Shown here piece after piece: positions 1 through 4,958 of a stretch of 4,958 nucleotides of DNA; position 1 is the first letter of the stretch; every line of letters begins with the position of its first letter. Source of the stretch: a virus. Lineage: Duplodnaviria; Heunggongvirae; Uroviricota; Caudoviricetes. The notes under the pieces are model-generated. The model made no database searches. It worked only from the letters and a program-made list of their open reading frames with translations, and was not told the DNA's origin. The translations under genes were made by a program, and so were the position numbers. Where the stretch lies: IMG/VR virus record IMGVR_UViG_2713896737_000025; one strand, written 5' to 3'.

Positions 1-164
1 ATGAACTGACCTGTATGACAGCGCGAATTAACCGTGGTGAGACGATACCTGAACCAGTAAAACAACTTCCTGTTATGGGCGGTAGACCTCTAAATCGTGC
101 ACAGGCTCTGGCGAAGATCGCAGAAATTAAAGCTAAGTTCGGACTGAAAGGAGCAAGTGTATGA
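1..164 (+). CDS. P: Lambdoid replication protein P, C-terminal fragment (5' part lies outside the window)
   Basis: The frame starting at nt 3 is open to TGA at 162-164 and translates ...ELTCMTARINRGETIPEPVKQLPVMGGRPLNRAQALAKIAEIKAKFGLKGASV, which matches my recollection of the lambda P C-terminus. Its stop overlaps the ren start (ATGA at 161-164), the lambda arrangement. Confidence 0.8.
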   Translation, partial: ELTCMTARINRGETIPEPVKQLPVMGGRPLNRAQALAKIAEIKAKFGLKGASV

Positions 165-463
165 CGGGCAAAGAGGCAATTATTCATTACCTGGGGACGC
201 ATAAGAGCTTCTGTGCACAGGACGTTGCCGCGGTAACAGGTGCAACCGTAACCAGCATAAATCAGGCTGCGGCTAAAATGGCGCGGGCAGGAATCCTGGT
301 CGTTGATGGTAAGGTCTGGCGAACGGTGTATTACCGGTTCGCTACCAGAGAAGAACGGGAAGGAAAGGTGAGCACGAATCTGATTTTTAAGGAGTGTCGC
401 CAGAGTGCCGCGATGAAACGGGTATTGAGGGTATATAAAAGAACATCAATGGGTACACAATGA
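161..463 (+). CDS. ren: Ren (Rex-exclusion resistance protein of lambdoid phages)
   Basis: 100-aa ORF beginning MTGKEAIIHYLGTH...VTSINQAAAKMARAG...VYYRFATREEREGK, near-identical in my memory to lambda Ren (96 aa). Sits directly after P as in lambda; start is coupled to the P stop. Confidence 0.85.
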   Translation: MTGKEAIIHYLGTHKSFCAQDVAAVTGATVTSINQAAAKMARAGILVVDGKVWRTVYYRFATREEREGKVSTNLIFKECRQSAAMKRVLRVYKRTSMGTQ

Positions 464-480
464 TGAAACAGGTGAGTTGA

Positions 481-515
481 GTTCAAACTGTAGTACAATT
501 CTCTCCAGTTTGAAC
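481..515 (+). promoter_or_regulatory. Perfect 10-bp inverted repeat (GTTCAAACTG / CAGTTTGAAC) with a 15-nt spacer, between ren and emrE
   Basis: Read directly: 481-490 is the exact reverse complement of 506-515. No U-tract follows, so it is not a classic intrinsic terminator. Lies at the left edge of the AT-rich cassette; candidate operator, RNA stem-loop or recombination site. Confidence 0.4.
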
Positions 516-530
516 AGGAAAGAATATGTT

Positions 531-863
531 ATGAACCCTTATATTTATCTTGGTGGTGCAATACTTGCAGAGGTCATTGGTACAACCTTAATGAAGTTTT
601 CAGAAGGTTTTACACGGTTATGGCCATCTGTTGGTACAATTATTTGTTATTGTGCATCATTCTGGTTATTAGCTCAGACGCTGGCTTATATTCCTACAGG
701 GATTGCTTATGCTATCTGGTCAGGAGTCGGTATTGTCCTGATTAGCTTACTATCATGGGGGTTTTTCGGCCAACGGCTGGACCTGCCAGCCGTTATAGGC
801 ATGATGTTGATTTGTGCCGGTGTGTTGGTTATTAATTTATTGTCACGAAGCACACCACATTAA
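531..863 (+). CDS. emrE: EmrE, small multidrug resistance (SMR) family efflux transporter
   Basis: 110-aa product MNPYIYLGGAILAEVIGTTLMKFSEGFTRLWPSVGTIICYCASFWLLAQT... is essentially the E. coli EmrE sequence, with the conserved membrane Glu in the first helix (AILAEVIGT). AGGAAA Shine-Dalgarno upstream of ATG 531. The ORF-track start at 477 is an upstream in-frame extension with no ribosome-binding site. Confidence 0.95.
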   Translation: MNPYIYLGGAILAEVIGTTLMKFSEGFTRLWPSVGTIICYCASFWLLAQTLAYIPTGIAYAIWSGVGIVLISLLSWGFFGQRLDLPAVIGMMLICAGVLVINLLSRSTPH

Positions 864-893
864 AAATAATTTCTTTTAAAAGACTGCAATATG

Positions 894-926
894 GCGGTTC
901 ATATCTTTACATGGGCCGCTTTTGTT
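894..926 (+). terminator. Candidate rho-independent terminator downstream of emrE
   Basis: GCGGTTCAT (894-902) can pair with ATGGGCCGC (911-919), including two G-U wobbles, around an 8-nt loop, followed by TTTTGTT (920-926). Begins about 30 nt after the emrE stop. Confidence 0.45.
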
Positions 927-1107
927 AATGTTTTTAGTTTTTGTGTATTCTTTTGTGCCTTCAAGATTATTGCGTAAGCAAATTGCAATACGATTATTGT
1001 TGTATATTCAAGATAGTGTGATCGTAATTGTCTTTTTAAATAAAAATTAAACAAAAATTATATCTCACCACTAAGGTTTATAAAAGCATAAGTTAGCAGG
1101 TGTCACC

Positions 1108-2634
1108 ATGAAAAAAGCCATAGCATATATGCGATTTTCATCACCAGGTCAGATGTCTGGCGACTCATTAAACCGACAGAGAAGACTTATTGCTGAATGG
1201 TTAAAGGTAAATAGTGATTATTATCTTGATACCATAACATATGAAGATTTAGGATTAAGTGCATTCAAAGGAAAGCATGCACAATCAGGAGCTTTTTCGG
1301 AATTTTTAGATGCTATAGAGCATGGTTATATATTGCCAGGAACTACATTGTTAGTTGAAAGTCTGGACAGACTTTCAAGAGAAAAAGTCGGTGAAGCGAT
1401 TGAACGTCTGAAATTGATTTTGAATCACGGTATTGATGTTATAACTCTTTGCGACAATACAGTCTATAATATTGACTCTTTGAATGAGCCATATTCATTA
1501 ATAAAAGCCATACTTATAGCACAAAGGGCAAATGAAGAAAGCGAGATAAAGTCAAGTCGGGTTAAATTATCATGGAAGAAAAAACGGCAGGATGCACTGG
1601 AATCAGGTACGATTATGACGGCGTCTTGTCCGAGATGGCTCTCCTTAGATGACAAAAGAACGGCTTTTGTTCCAGACCCCGACAGGGTGAAAACTATTGA
1701 GCTAATTTTTAAACTCAGGATGGAAAGGCGCTCATTGAATGCAATAGCCAAGTATTTAAATGATCATGCTGTAAAGAATTTCTCAGGAAAAGAAAGTGCA
1801 TGGGGGCCTTCTGTAATTGAAAAATTATTAGCGAATAAAGCTCTGATAGGTATATGCGTACCTTCATATCGTGCAAGAGGGAAAGGGATAAGTGAAATCG
1901 CTGGCTATTATCCCAGAGTCATATCAGATGATTTGTTTTACGCTGTACAGGAAATTCGGTTGGCACCTTTTGGTATTAGCAATAGTAGCAAGAATCCTAT
2001 GCTAATAAATCTACTTCGAACAGTTATGAAGTGTGAGGCTTGTGGTAATACCATGATTGTTCATGCGGTATCTGGAAGTTTGCATGGCTATTATGTTTGT
2101 CCGATGAGAAGATTACATCGATGTGACAGGCCATCAATAAAGAGAGATTTGGTTGATTATAATATCATTAATGAATTGCTTTTTAATTGTAGCAAAATTC
2201 AACCAGTTGAAAACAAGAAAGATGCTAATGAAACTTTAGAGTTAAAAATTATTGAGCTTCAGATGAAAATTAATAATTTAATCGTTGCATTGTCTGTCGC
2301 GCCTGAAGTTACCGCTATAGCAGAGAAAATAAGACTATTAGATAAGGAATTACGAAGAGCTTTGGTATCATTGAAAACTTTGAAGAGTAAAGGTGTAAAT
2401 TCATTCAGTGATTTTTATGCTATTGACTTAACCAGTAAAAATGGACGAGAGTTATGCCGTACACTTGCCTATAAAATATTCGAAAAAATCATAATTAATA
2501 CGGATAATAAAACCTGTGATATCTATTTTATGAATGGCATTGTTTTTAAACACTATCCTTTAATGAAAGTAATATCCGCCCAGCAGGCGATAAGTGCTCT
2601 CAAATATATGGTTGATGGTGAGGTTTATTTTTGA
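1108..2634 (+). CDS. ybcK: Large serine recombinase (resolvase/invertase-type catalytic domain, recombinase domain, zinc ribbon, coiled coil); YbcK-like
   Basis: 508-aa ORF with AGGTG Shine-Dalgarno 5 nt upstream. N-terminus AIAYMRFSSPGQ matches the serine-recombinase YxRVSTxxQ motif (nucleophile at Ser11); SLDRLSR at residues 85-91 matches the conserved DRLxR; Cys-x2-Cys-x18-Cys-x7-Cys zinc ribbon at residues 309-339; predicted coiled coil around 374-428. Length and N-terminus match K-12 YbcK as I remember it. Strongly AT-rich codon usage. Confidence 0.9.
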   Translation: MKKAIAYMRFSSPGQMSGDSLNRQRRLIAEWLKVNSDYYLDTITYEDLGLSAFKGKHAQSGAFSEFLDAIEHGYILPGTTLLVESLDRLSREKVGEAIERLKLILNHGIDVITLCDNTVYNIDSLNEPYSLIKAILIAQRANEESEIKSSRVKLSWKKKRQDALESGTIMTASCPRWLSLDDKRTAFVPDPDRVKTIELIFKLRMERRSLNAIAKYLNDHAVKNFSGKESAWGPSVIEKLLANKALIGICVPSYRARGKGISEIAGYYPRVISDDLFYAVQEIRLAPFGISNSSKNPMLINLLRTVMKCEACGNTMIVHAVSGSLHGYYVCPMRRLHRCDRPSIKRDLVDYNIINELLFNCSKIQPVENKKDANETLELKIIELQMKINNLIVALSVAPEVTAIAEKIRLLDKELRRALVSLKTLKSKGVNSFSDFYAIDLTSKNGRELCRTLAYKIFEKIIINTDNKTCDIYFMNGIVFKHYPLMKVISAQQAISALKYMVDGEVYF

Positions 2635-2753
2635 GTAATAATCACTTTTTCAACCGTGCTATGGTATGAAAGTAAAGTAACTACTATGATATTAACTATC
2701 GAGCAAGAATATCCCCAGGCACTCAACAGGGCGCAGGTCAACGTGAATCGGTC

Positions 2754-2945
2754 ATGACACGACACCGATTTTGCGGAATCAATGTTGCTTATGAATACAA
2801 CATCCCGCTTAGTACATGTTCAACACATCAGCAAATTTTGAACTGGGTGTGGCACTTAACTGAAAAAACATGGATGACACAAAATGTTACTCGTCGCTTC
2901 ATTGAAGTAGCTTGTGGATATCACAAGCTAGACTATCGCCAATGA
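2754..2945 (+). CDS. Hypothetical small protein (63 aa), doubtful
   Basis: ORF from the track; I recognise no motif in MTRHRFCGINVAYEYNIPLSTCSTHQQ..., see no convincing Shine-Dalgarno, and the start codon lies in the loop of a short hairpin. Possibly a remnant of what occupies the ybcL/ybcM position in K-12. Confidence 0.2.
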   Translation: MTRHRFCGINVAYEYNIPLSTCSTHQQILNWVWHLTEKTWMTQNVTRRFIEVACGYHKLDYRQ

Positions 2946-2987
2946 TATTCAATTTTTGATTTTTTAGTATCAACCTTCCATAATAAT

Positions 2988-3016
2988 GTCACCGGAGCTT
3001 GAACAACTCCGGTGAC
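2988..3016 (+). other. Perfect 10-bp GC-rich stem-loop (GTCACCGGAG / CTCCGGTGAC, 9-nt loop)
   Basis: Read directly from the sequence. Followed by TTCTGCGCATTT, only weakly U-rich, so a weak terminator or a regulatory/processing hairpin just upstream of ylcH. Confidence 0.4.
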
Positions 3017-3040
3017 TTCTGCGCATTTAAGGGGACTTAA

Positions 3041-3139
3041 ATGCGACCACAATCTGAACTCCTTACCTTGTCACAGATGCAGAAATGCACCTGCGATGTC
3101 TTGCATCCAGCGTTTGATCTCTGCGGAGGTGAAGCGTGA
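3041..3139 (+). CDS. ylcH: Small protein YlcH-like (32 aa)
   Basis: ATG 3041 is preceded by AAGGGGA; translation is [32 protein letters not shown]. Its TGA stop (3137-3139) overlaps the ybcN GTG start (GTGA). Size and position immediately upstream of ybcN match the small ylcH gene of K-12 DLP12, from memory. Confidence 0.5.
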
Positions 3140-3591
3140 ACCTCCCACAAGATGGCATCAAATTACATCGCGGTAACTTCACCGCTGTCGGTCAGCAGAT
3201 CCAGACTTATCTGGAAGACGGCAAATGCTTTCGCATGGTGCTTAAACCGTGGCGCGAGAGACGCAGTCTTTCCCAGAATGCACTCAGCCACATGTGGTAC
3301 AGCGAAATCAGTGAATACCTCATCAGCAGGGGGAAATCGTTCGCTACTTCAGCATGGGTAAAAGATGCTCTCAAACACACATACCTCGGTTATGAAACCA
3401 AGGACCTGGTTGATGTCGTAACCGGCGAAATCACTACTATCCAGTCGTTACGCCATACCTCCGATCTTGGTACCGGAGAGATGTATGTCTTCCTGTGTAA
3501 GGTTGAAGCCTGGGCGATGAATATTGGCTGCCACCTGACTATTCCACAGAGCTGCGAGTTCCAGCTGCTGCGTGACAAGCAGGAGGCGTAA
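3136..3591 (+). CDS. ybcN: YbcN, NinB/Orf-family recombination protein (DNA base-flipping protein in K-12)
   Basis: 151-aa ORF with GTG start and GGAGGTG Shine-Dalgarno. The [17 protein letters not shown] motif resembles the lambda NinB/Orf RSLDQN region; matches K-12 YbcN as I recall it. Confidence 0.9.
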
Positions 3592-3761
3592 TGGCTACAC
3601 CGCTTATTCGTGTCATGAACGGACACATCTACAAAGTACCAAATCGTCGTAAGCGTAAACCTGAGCTGAAGCCATCCGAAATACCAACACTGCTCGGATA
3701 TACCGCCAGCCTGGTTGATAAAAAATGGTTGCGACTGGCAGCAAGGAGGAATCATGGCTGA
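3591..3761 (+). CDS. ninE: NinE-family protein (56 aa)
   Basis: Not in the ORF track (too short). ATG 3591 overlaps the ybcN stop (TAATG), with AGGAGG 5 nt upstream. Product [56 protein letters not shown] resembles lambda NinE (...YTAHLWDIRWLRRRAR...). Confidence 0.8.
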   Translation: MATPLIRVMNGHIYKVPNRRKRKPELKPSEIPTLLGYTASLVDKKWLRLAARRNHG

Positions 3762-4040
3762 TTTGAGAAAAGCAGCGCGTAGTCGGGAATGCCAAGTAAG
3801 AATCCCTGGCGTATGTAATGGCAACCCTGAAACGTCTGTACTGGCACATATCCGGCTGACTGGATTGTGCGGCACCGGTACCAAACCGCCAGACTTGATT
3901 GCCACCATTGCATGTTCTGCCTGCCACGACGAAATCGACCGCCGCACACATTTTGTCGATGCTGCATATGCAAAAGAATGCGCGCTGGAAGGTATGGCGA
4001 GAACACAGGTTATCTGGCTGAAAGAGGGGGTTATTAAGGC

Positions 4041-4044
<4 letters not shown>
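3754..4044 (+). CDS. ybcO: YbcO, putative nuclease with a Cys-rich metal-binding motif (DUF1364 family)
   Basis: 96-aa product [34 protein letters not shown]...[12 protein letters not shown]... with AAGGAGG 5 nt upstream of ATG 3754. Start overlaps the ninE 3' end by 8 nt. The track ORF 3715-4044 is the same frame with an unsupported upstream extension. Confidence 0.85.

Positions 4045-4958
<914 letters not shown>

Follow-up and report, generated by a model that had tools for sequence, protein, structure and literature searches.

We propose that, in this lambdoid prophage of the DLP12/phage-82 type, the AT-rich stretch between ren and ylcH is a variable accessory ("moron") slot that separates the replication module (P-ren) from the nin module. 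We consider this quite probable, and that judgment applies jointly to the variable slot with its composite AT-rich fill and to the steps of exchange, silencing, and read-through that are proposed below. The fill is AT-rich and foreign, and it is a composite of at least three independently exchanged modules. Thus, the original prediction was right that accessory DNA was separately acquired in the ren-nin gap, but not that it forms a single cassette. The genes and the locus are already known and are annotated as the DLP12-type emrE-ybcK region, and AT-rich accessory genes that are silenced by H-NS and Rho are a textbook feature of lambdoid prophages. The gene order (P'-ren-emrE-ylcJ-ybcK-orf63-ylcH-ybcN-ninE-ybcO-rusA) agrees with how RefSeq annotates a near-identical O157 prophage. 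The features of the window (the whole stretch of 4,958 nucleotides that we analysed) are listed in Table 1.

Table 1. Features of the window and the evidence for each
Feature	Position	Strand	Basis
ren	161–463	+	PHROG 142 Ren-like, E = 6e-42
Probable AT-rich variable accessory slot	437–2954		Homology breakpoints (BLAST against six comparator loci) and GC contrast
emrE module (77-bp leader, emrE, and 8 bp)	454–871	+	Only part in common with the chromosomal fliE-side emrE-ybcL-ybcM island
Stem-loop with 13-bp arms in the emrE leader, GTTCAAACTGTAG...CTCCAGTTTGAAC	481–515	+	Inverted-repeat search
emrE, 110-aa SMR efflux transporter	531–863	+	Pfam PF00893 Multi_Drug_Res, E = 2e-35, residues 3–94; PHROG 1395, E = 4e-58
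Intrinsic-terminator-like hairpin followed by TTTTGTTAATG, downstream of emrE	893–920	+	Terminator scan
ylcJ, 40-aa hydrophobic small protein, most AT-rich part (25% GC)	928–1050	+	Pfam PF23688 YlcJ-like, E = 1.7e-18
ybcK, predicted 508-aa large serine recombinase of phage-integrase type	1108–2634	+	Pfam, PHROG 95, Foldseek
66-bp stretch after ybcK	2635–2700		Moves with ybcK in all E. coli variants
Short remnant of the inside of a "P22AR C-terminal domain" gene	2696–2737		2696–2734/2737 aligns with 88–92% identity to L007 4438–4476 and L008 4439–4480
orf63, intact member of a phage/prophage protein family	2754–2945	+	PHROG 2559, E = 4e-51, full length
Conserved right-junction block, common to all cargo variants	2955–3040	+	Eight-sequence alignment, junction inspection, promoter and terminator scans
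ylcH, 32 aa, first gene of the conserved nin backbone	3041–3139	+	Translation; homologous 33-aa ORF annotated
ybcN, NinB/Orf-like, nin backbone, ~51% GC	3136–3591	+	PHROG 72, E = 6e-51; Pfam NinB, E = 1e-4
IS1203 (IS3 family) end, outside the cassette	4391–4958	−	Sits 13 bp before the rusA stop

The AT-rich stretch that had been noticed between ren and ylcH is real. The sliding GC profile was not uniform: it ran at 0.45–0.53 over positions 1–500, 0.28–0.46 over 401–3100, and 0.47–0.56 thereafter. The slot (2,518 bp) has 36.3% GC, as compared to 50.6% in the flanks (1–436 and 2955–4390, 1,872 bp; two-proportion z = 9.5), and the span first proposed, 464–3040, has 36.4%. The third codon positions show the same step, with GC3 of 24–36% in the genes of the insert and 47–61% in the flanking genes (GC/GC3 of 42/35 for emrE, 25/24 for ylcJ, 36/29 for ybcK, and 40/36 for orf63; 50/52 for ren, 51/49 for ylcH, 51/60 for ybcN, and 54/61 for rusA). 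The values originally read by eye (23–38% for ybcK, ~37% for emrE, and ~53% for ybcN) were close, except that emrE is somewhat less AT-rich than was said.

By homology, the left border of the slot lies at 428–436, within the 3' end of ren, and the right border lies at 2954–2956, ~85 bp before ylcH. The GC-based estimates of 464 and 3040 were off by about 30 and 85 bp. Homology of ren to lambda, PhiR5_1, PhiR30_1, and ev243 stops at 427–436, and the Ren proteins are identical through ...AAMKRVL and divergent thereafter in every lineage. The last ~10 codons of ren (about 428–463) differ by cargo. As this mosaic junction lies inside ren, at codon ~90, each cargo supplies its own ren C-terminal tail. 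The right junction is constant to ±2 nt in seven variants. The block that begins there contains a palindrome (TTGAT-N8-ATCAA, 2956–2973), a −10-like CATAAT (2979–2984), and a 10-bp GC-rich hairpin (2988–3016). An identical, sharp right junction in all variants could also come from a site-specific mechanism. Beyond the block, the 3' end of ylcH overlaps the start of ybcN, and rusA is interrupted by IS1203.

The two fixed junctions are common to phages with unrelated AT-rich cargo. PhiR5_1 (with a Rha cargo) and PhiR30_1 (with an acyltransferase and a lipoprotein) share 1–427/436 and 2954/2955–4391 with the window. Phage ev243 shares 1–427/436 and has no cargo and a different NinB, while the homology of lambda to the window covers 14–436 only. 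Because emrE-ybcK is absent from all four of these phages, it is not a core feature of lambdoid phages. As predicted, NinB directly follows ren in lambda, 73 bp downstream (the spacing is 73–74 bp in lambda and ev243); this spacer holds the terminator tR2. All of the cargos in the slot are 1.5–4.1 kb in size, with 36–41% GC.

With a chimeric query (the end of ren plus the ylcH block), we searched 5,426 complete E. coli genomes and 50,697 phage records and found no ren joined to the ylcH block within ~740 bp. The slot was never found empty in ybcN-type phages. Rather than being the site of a one-off insertion, it behaves like a variable slot that is always filled, and insertion is deduced only from the comparison with lambda and ev243 and with the alternative cargos. 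So, alignment to other lambdoids, as the original prediction had suggested, gave the exact junctions but not an empty site in a ybcN-type backbone.

Within the slot, the module boundaries are nested, and emrE and ybcK are independent of each other. The ylcJ-ybcK module spans 872 to about 2700. What comes after emrE-ylcJ-ybcK varies: orf63 here, an esterase in 4A7, ybcL-ybcM in the DLP12 type, and a P22AR C-terminal domain gene in phage Turner and UPEC-245U. The left breakpoints of these cargos are staggered, as homology to 4A7, Turner, and UPEC-245U stops at 2700 and homology to the DLP12 type stops at 2673, with different cargo beyond. The stretch at 2696–2737, which matches the inside of the P22AR-C gene, is a deletion scar of that gene. 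The short degenerate right part (2701–2954, 254 bp) holds orf63, and its DNA was found only in the 306 genomes with contiguous ybcK-orf63-ybcN; every match that we inspected was O157 or closely related. Orf63 had no Pfam or PADLOC match, and tblastn against the 50,697 phage records found no match to it despite the strong match to PHROG 2559. We found no phage with emrE directly beside ybcL.

Pfam confirmed that the stretch encodes an SMR efflux pump (Multi_Drug_Res) and a serine recombinase (below). EmrE has a glutamate at position 14 (translation MNPYIYLGGAILAE), differs at 1/110 residues from the copy in the DLP12-type phage PhiR70_1, and has dN/dS of 0–0.2. Given its close similarity to K-12 EmrE, it probably exports cationic drugs by coupling to protons. 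The expectation of an undescribed accessory function holds only for ybcK, ylcJ (which is annotated in RefSeq neighbours), and orf63; EmrE is the archetype of the SMR pumps. PADLOC (E of 0.01 or better) gave no defence match for Ren, EmrE, YlcJ, YbcK, Orf63, or YbcN. The stem-loop in the emrE leader is kept in the chromosomal (fliE-side) copy and includes a −10-like hexamer (TACAAT, 494–499). An Rfam scan of the whole window (E up to 1) found nothing, including no guanidine or other riboswitch before emrE, and sigma-70-like sites were not enriched (11 versus 10.7 in shuffled sequence). The region of the hairpin downstream of emrE is present in emrE-ybcK phages.

YbcK is a complete phage-type large serine recombinase with intact catalytic residues, under purifying selection (dN/dS of 0.06–0.18). 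It contains the Pfam domains Resolvase (PF00239, E = 5e-19), Recombinase (PF07508), and Zn_ribbon_recom (PF13408), and it matches PHROG 95 (integrase) with E = 7e-120. R9, S11, D87, R88, and R91, along with the Zn-ribbon cysteines C309, C312, C331, and C339, are invariant in 19 orthologues. The AF2 model has a coiled coil at 367–427 (helices 367–397 and 401–427). A PDB sequence search with YbcK found no match, and Foldseek found full-length matches to the serine integrases 9dxd, PhiC31, and Bxb1 (E of 1e-18 to 1e-14). By analogy to phage serine integrases, YbcK most likely retains att-site recombination. Orthologues with 40–61% identity occur in nin regions, at the tail-fibre ends of prophages, and on plasmids, across Enterobacterales (marker proteins were used to label 18 of these loci, which was only partly informative as many loci stayed unlabelled). 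A survey of co-occurring genes, also suggested by the original prediction, found emrE near none of the orthologues in the non-E. coli loci that we examined.

In the variable-slot explanation, pieces would arrive by recombination, either homologous or illegitimate, and be swapped in the same way among phages and defective prophages. The conserved flanks would serve as anchors: ren as far as codon ~90 on the left, and the block from 2955 (palindrome, hairpin, and ylcH) on the right. The pattern of breakpoints fits ordinary mosaic recombination, and site-specific insertion catalysed by YbcK would not be required to fill the slot. Lambdoid phages swap DNA with DLP12 through relaxed homologous recombination (PMC3945230). 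In the lysogen, the AT-rich DNA of the slot would be largely silenced by H-NS and Rho: in K-12, RpoD promoters that were flagged as H-NS-associated lie in the emrE>ybcK and ybcK>ybcL spacers (PMC3946193), and there is a Rho-dependent terminator in the 5' UTR of ybcK (PMC4150792). Also, ybcK is bound by Hfq/polyP (PMC10954037). For the idea that every gene carries a promoter and a terminator of its own, the support is the K-12 literature plus the one hairpin at 893–920. We propose that emrE is a lysogenic-conversion gene whose product exports toxic cationic compounds, and that, when the phage grows lytically, transcription from pR under N antitermination runs through the entire slot.

A second possibility is that YbcK works for the phage as an additional integrase or as an accessory recombinase, for example by giving it an alternative att site or by resolving or inverting phage DNA. 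The ybcK part would then be phage-propagation machinery and not a host-directed moron. The full-length structural match to phage integrases and the PHROG assignment point this way, and in six prophages from other genera, the orthologue is the last or nearly the last gene before the host junction or an adjacent prophage, positions that adjoin the expected attP. Also, the chromosomal remnant (discussed below) retained emrE-ybcL-ybcM and not ybcK. Nevertheless, this seems unlikely because the window's type of prophage has its own integrase. In the near-identical O157 prophage, a tyrosine integrase and an excisionase are at the canonical end, adjoining icd, and ybcK is 3 kb inside the early region, so YbcK is not placed as the integrase of its carrier element. 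Furthermore, we identified no att site or RDF candidate, and the DLP12 of K-12, which is defective and does not excise, keeps an intact ybcK. The idea that the orthologues at prophage ends are the sole integrases there is also weakened by Ewingella (L025), where there is a tyrosine integrase immediately beyond the common module boundary.

Third, the segment or its ylcJ-ybcK core could be a small integrative element that was inserted by YbcK, with attL and attR at the module borders; we rate this lower still, even when we include the variant in which YbcK uses a site beside its gene to capture or exchange the right-hand cargo. In favour of such an element are the completeness and conservation of the enzyme, a clean 2,083-bp indel that distinguishes the phage from the chromosomal emrE-ybcL-ybcM array and starts 8 bp past the emrE stop, a small dyad (TTATC-CTTGA-GATAA) at the empty site in that array, and the 66 bp after the ybcK stop that always accompany the gene, with the variety of cargo starting right beyond. 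However, to the right of ybcK the breakpoints lie at several positions (2673, 2700, +383 bp, and +515 bp) and not at one dinucleotide, the reconstructed "attP" (the right end of the indel joined to its left end) lacks dyad symmetry, and no significant inverted repeats flank ybcK. The outer junctions of the slot are used equally by cargos that lack a recombinase, and the distant contexts of ybcK have in common only the gene and 62–120 bp upstream. (In L018, we considered whether YbcK insertion had split DUF1367, and we rejected this: the left flank is a diverged copy of the 5' end of DUF1367 (82.5% identity) that the related L023 lacks. Such a duplicate is a scar of homologous recombination and not a 2-bp crossover.) A repeat search across 380–3060 found only short AT-rich chance pairs, none of them placed as element ends. 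A BLAST comparison of the upstream and downstream flanks of seven orthologue loci found no common or inverted terminal motif. The window contains no tRNA or tmRNA and hence no tRNA-type attachment site. Finally, we found no convincing dyad-symmetric att-like sites at the module borders or flanking ybcK, although the att sites of large serine recombinases are only weakly symmetric and their absence cannot be proven in silico. In sum, we found no evidence that YbcK moved the cassette and no att-like ends.

A related idea, marginally less probable again, is that active YbcK uses a site in 2635–2700 or the palindrome block at 2955 to capture, exchange, or invert the right-hand cargo. If so, then the ren-nin slot would be an integron-like, recombinase-serviced cargo platform of DLP12-type phages, and the YbcK family would be a portable "cargo-loading" recombinase of Enterobacterales prophages.

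Fourth, emrE (with ybcL-ybcM) could be an ancestral chromosomal locus beside fliE, with the phage copy being a captured host gene. About 2,300 of the 5,426 E. coli genomes have emrE-ybcL-ybcM, without ybcK and with no phage structural genes nearby, between fliE and yedK, which is more than the 1,398 genomes that have the DLP12-type prophage version. These ~2,300 genomes match only 454–871 of the window, at ~91.5% identity (L019 6001–6419 aligns to this part), so that the fliE locus of other strains holds a second emrE allele (91.5% identical). But the island itself is AT-rich (39.5% GC versus 55.6% in the adjoining fli genes) and adjoins an IS200/IS605 element. It runs from the last 10 bp of ren to the ylcH junction block, the ybcN start codon, and then the 3' end of antiterminator Q, which is the structure of a deleted lambdoid prophage. 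We therefore consider an ancestral origin to be very improbable and describe the island as a prophage remnant. The absence of ybcK from its array could mean either that the phage gained the gene or that the remnant lost it.

Finally, there is almost no chance that the GC step is an accident or an effect of gene content in a core lambdoid region where nothing was acquired: membrane-protein genes such as emrE do tend to be somewhat AT/T-rich, which is the only point in its favour, but this origin is refuted by the z-score for GC, by the contrast in GC3, and by the absence of the segment from lambda and other lambdoids that have the same flanks.

The practical weight of the locus is small. Still, inducible phages (4A7, Turner, and the PhiR series) carry the archetypal pump EmrE as cargo, and EmrE is also part of a fixed chromosomal remnant; these two homes bear on the spread of a resistance determinant. 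YbcK is a conserved and intact serine integrase that more than a thousand E. coli genomes have retained, as have prophages across Enterobacterales. Its att sites, once found, could show why the gene persists and provide one more recombinase tool.

How does the slot compare to known systems? Hendrix and colleagues reportedly described morons as extra genes of deviant composition between conserved neighbours. Like the morons of lambda-type phages, the fill of the slot is extra DNA between conserved genes (adjacent in relatives, as judged by the spacing in lambda and ev243 and the flanks of PhiR5_1 and PhiR30_1) with markedly different GC and GC3, a terminator-like hairpin after emrE, and cargo that would serve the host rather than phage growth; its position is exactly that of lambda's ren-NinB spacer. 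Unlike those morons, the slot is multi-gene and nested rather than one promoter-gene-terminator unit, its left junction is inside ren rather than intergenic, and no precise empty site was found in an otherwise identical backbone.

YbcK shares the catalytic domain, the long alpha-E helix, the recombinase domain, the zinc ribbon, and the coiled coil with PhiC31, Bxb1, and the integrase-RDF complex 9dxd, but with only 14–18% identity, and ybcK is a nin-region gene of a phage already equipped with a tyrosine integrase. EmrE resembles the SMR (QacE-like) family in its length of 110 aa, its full-length PF00893 domain, and its essential membrane-embedded Glu14; the DNA of the region is ~98% identical to K-12, and no functional difference is evident. 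The closest relative of the locus as a whole is DLP12 of K-12 (renD-emrE-ylcJ-ybcK-ybcL-ybcM-ylcH-ybcN), which shares the backbone, the slot, and the emrE-ylcJ-ybcK module (97.7% identity over 440–2643) and has the same ren and ylcH junctions, as in PhiR70_1. In contrast to DLP12, ybcL-ybcM is replaced here by the 254-bp remnant with orf63, and rusA is cut by IS1203.

The original prediction had taken the emrE-ybcK region for separately acquired accessory DNA, and this interpretation holds; the locus is, however, an already annotated accessory region of the type found in DLP12, the cryptic prophage of E. coli K-12. The AT-rich step that was claimed is real. Region 464-3040 has 36.4% GC, and in a 200-bp profile GC is 0.28-0.46 over about 400-3100 and 0.47-0.56 on both sides. 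As defined by homology, the insert (437-2954) has 36.3% GC versus 50.6% for the phage flanks (z = 9.5), and GC3 is 24-36% in emrE, ylcJ, ybcK, and orf63 versus 47-61% in ren, ylcH, ybcN, ybcO, and rusA. Gene order was taken from the ORF list and family scans.

Features of the window, in order
Feature	Position	Remark
P		first gene; 3' end only
ren	161-463	
Stem-loop	481-515	13-bp arms
emrE	531-863	
Terminator-like hairpin	893-920	3' of emrE
ylcJ	928-1050	
ybcK	1108-2634	
orf63	2754-2945	63-codon ORF
Palindrome	2956-2973	TTGAT-N8-ATCAA
CATAAT		17 bp downstream of the -35-like hexamer
GC-rich hairpin	2988-3016	10 bp
Shine-Dalgarno sequence		
ylcH	3041-3139	
ybcN	3136-3591	
ninE, ybcO, rusA		after ybcN, in that order
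IS1203 end (IS3 family)	from about 4390/4391 to 4958	

MegaBLAST against complete E. coli genomes showed that O157 prophages share this arrangement. One of them adjoins icd, carries a tyrosine integrase and an excisionase of its own, and is 100% identical to the window over 1-3084 and 3080-4391; the sole difference is the position of IS1203. (In the window, IS1203 inserted 13 bp ahead of the rusA stop, which gives a 194-aa read-through ORF. Strain AR-0428 has an otherwise identical prophage in which this IS lies between the hairpin block and ybcN, at window position 3084.)

The left junction lies within ren, because the lambdoid phages PhiR5_1 and PhiR30_1 share both flanks with the window (1-427/436 and 2954/2955-4391) and carry other DNA between them (a Rha-containing gene set and an acyltransferase plus a lipoprotein, respectively). 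Ren proteins are all identical up to ...AAMKRVL, and their tails thereafter differ by lineage. The position of the right junction is constant within 2 nt across seven cargo variants. The lambda match to the window is confined to 14-436 (93%), and lambda's expected order of ren and then ninB was borne out: just a 73-bp spacer with the tR2 hairpin separates ren from NinB, and phage ev243 has the same arrangement. With a chimeric query, we found no record with the ren end and the ylcH block within about 740 bp of each other, among 5,426 E. coli genomes and 50,697 phage records. In ybcN-type backbones, then, the slot seems always to be occupied. All cargos seen in it are 1.5-4.1 kb long, with 36-41% GC.

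The fill of the slot is composite. To the right of emrE-ylcJ-ybcK, the DLP12 type (phage PhiR70_1) has ybcL-ybcM; downstream of ybcK, phage 4A7 has an esterase in the opposite orientation, and phages Turner and UPEC-245U have a P22AR-C-domain gene with small ORFs. The window has merely 254 bp, holding orf63, and retains a 39-42 bp scar from the interior of the P22AR-C gene. Where these right-hand parts begin is staggered, with left breakpoints at 2673, 2700, +383 bp, and +515 bp. The window's ybcK-orf63 variant is present in 306 genomes, and all of the matches that we inspected, spread through the listing, were O157 or close kin.

One possibility is that YbcK itself inserted the cassette, which we did not find support for. 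Repeat searches and inspection of the junctions gave no att-like dyads. The staggered right-hand breakpoints argue against insertion by YbcK, as do the cargos that lack a recombinase and yet share the same outer junctions. Also, the flank in L018 (a lambdoid prophage from a metagenome, carrying an orthologue of YbcK) is a diverged duplicate, which is typical of homologous exchange, and experiments have shown that lambdoid phages readily swap segments with DLP12 by relaxed homologous recombination (PMC3945230). The mechanism is most likely ordinary lambdoid mosaicism.

emrE and ybcK are separable. Of the 5,426 genomes, 1,398 covered 80% or more of the core (440-2700), and in about 2,300 additional genomes the match was limited to 454-871, at about 91.5% identity. 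In both of the ybcK-less genomes that we inspected, emrE is directly followed by ybcL-ybcM, between fliE and yedK. Aligned to the DLP12-type phage, this island matches it on either side of a 2,083-bp indel, within which ylcJ and ybcK lie. Because it starts with the last 10 bp of ren, continues through the ylcH block to the start of ybcN, skips from there to the 3' end of Q, and has 39.5% GC versus 55.6% for the adjoining fli genes, the island is best read as a heavily deleted remnant of a DLP12-like prophage. An ancestral host locus for this emrE is made very unlikely by the ren tip, the ylcH block, the Q 3' end, and the low GC. Such an island, seen at the chromosomal loci L019 (6001-8254) and L020, gives some 2,300 complete E. 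coli genomes another emrE allele, of 91.5% identity. An IS200/IS605 element adjoins the island. No sequenced phage in our collection had emrE adjoining ybcL without ybcK.

The stem-loop within the 67-bp ren-emrE spacer is conserved in the diverged emrE copy on the chromosome; it had no riboswitch match and could be a leader, an attenuator, or a substitute for tR2. Otherwise, the expression picture comes from the literature on K-12, and the evidence from the window is the hairpin 3' of emrE and a promoter scan, which found no overall enrichment of promoter-like sites across the window. In K-12, RpoD promoters flagged as H-NS-associated lie in the emrE>ybcK and ybcK>ybcL spacers (PMC3946193), a Rho/NusG-dependent terminator lies within the ybcK 5' UTR (PMC4150792), and ybcK DNA is a binding site for Hfq/polyphosphate (PMC10954037). 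A study of sabinene tolerance lists ybcK as a gene of unknown function (PMC7181518).

At the right junction, the conserved backbone starts abruptly with the palindrome. The arms of this palindrome are invariant, with a variable spacer (most phages have TTGATT-N6-AATCAA), and a -35-like hexamer overlaps it. Variants of the GC-rich hairpin still pair, through G-U and only on the + strand. The block (2955-3040) had no match in Rfam; its appearance suggests an operator/promoter or RNA element that guards the nin genes. In the fliE-side remnant, the palindrome arms have decayed.

YbcK has all three Pfam domains of large serine recombinases and matches a PHROG integrase family; no PADLOC defence-system model matched it. 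The catalytic residues (R9, S11, D87, R88, and R91) and the four zinc-ribbon cysteines are invariant across 19 orthologues, and dN/dS among E. coli variants is 0.06-0.18, similar to emrE and ybcN. The AF2 model (mean pLDDT 79) predicts a catalytic domain, a long helix E, a recombinase domain, a zinc ribbon, an antiparallel coiled coil (367-427), and a small C-terminal beta domain. This predicted fold resembles solved phage serine integrases over its full length (Foldseek; 9dxd, E = 1.5e-18, as well as PhiC31 and Bxb1).

Full-length orthologues (40-61% identity) occur across Enterobacterales in three contexts, and emrE was not seen near YbcK in any orthologue locus that we examined. First, some are in nin-equivalent regions of lambdoid prophages (L018, L023, and L013). 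(The early-region accessory stretch of L018, which lies between P and the nin genes, also encodes a 646-aa SIR2_2-domain protein, at 3755-5695, which is possibly anti-phage defence cargo.) Second, some are on plasmid or ICE-like DNA (L016, L031, and L034). In L016 (Citrobacter koseri, 6145-9530), the orthologue is oriented divergently beside the gene of a 555-aa protein with a faint match to Shufflon_N, which hints that some family members might be invertases acting on a shufflon-like adhesin gene. Third, in Atlantibacter, Erwinia, Yersinia, and Ewingella, the orthologue is the last or near-last gene of a prophage, past the tail-fibre genes. It precedes the prophage-host junction in five loci (L009, L014, L101, L025, and L026) and adjoins a second, P2-like prophage in Yersinia (L011).

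Unrelated contexts share just the ORF and 62-120 bp upstream. In Ewingella, a 2-kb module takes in 62 bp upstream of the gene and about 405 bp downstream (L101, 9939-11938; L025 and L026, 9936-11934), and its end is identical to the nucleotide in one prophage of myovirus type and two of siphovirus type, whose three right flanks differ. Probably it represents the attP-proximal arm of an integration module that these prophages share. Just past its end in L025 there is a tyrosine integrase, which reproduces lambda's order of b region, attP, and int, and by this analogy argues that the Ewingella orthologue is accessory too.
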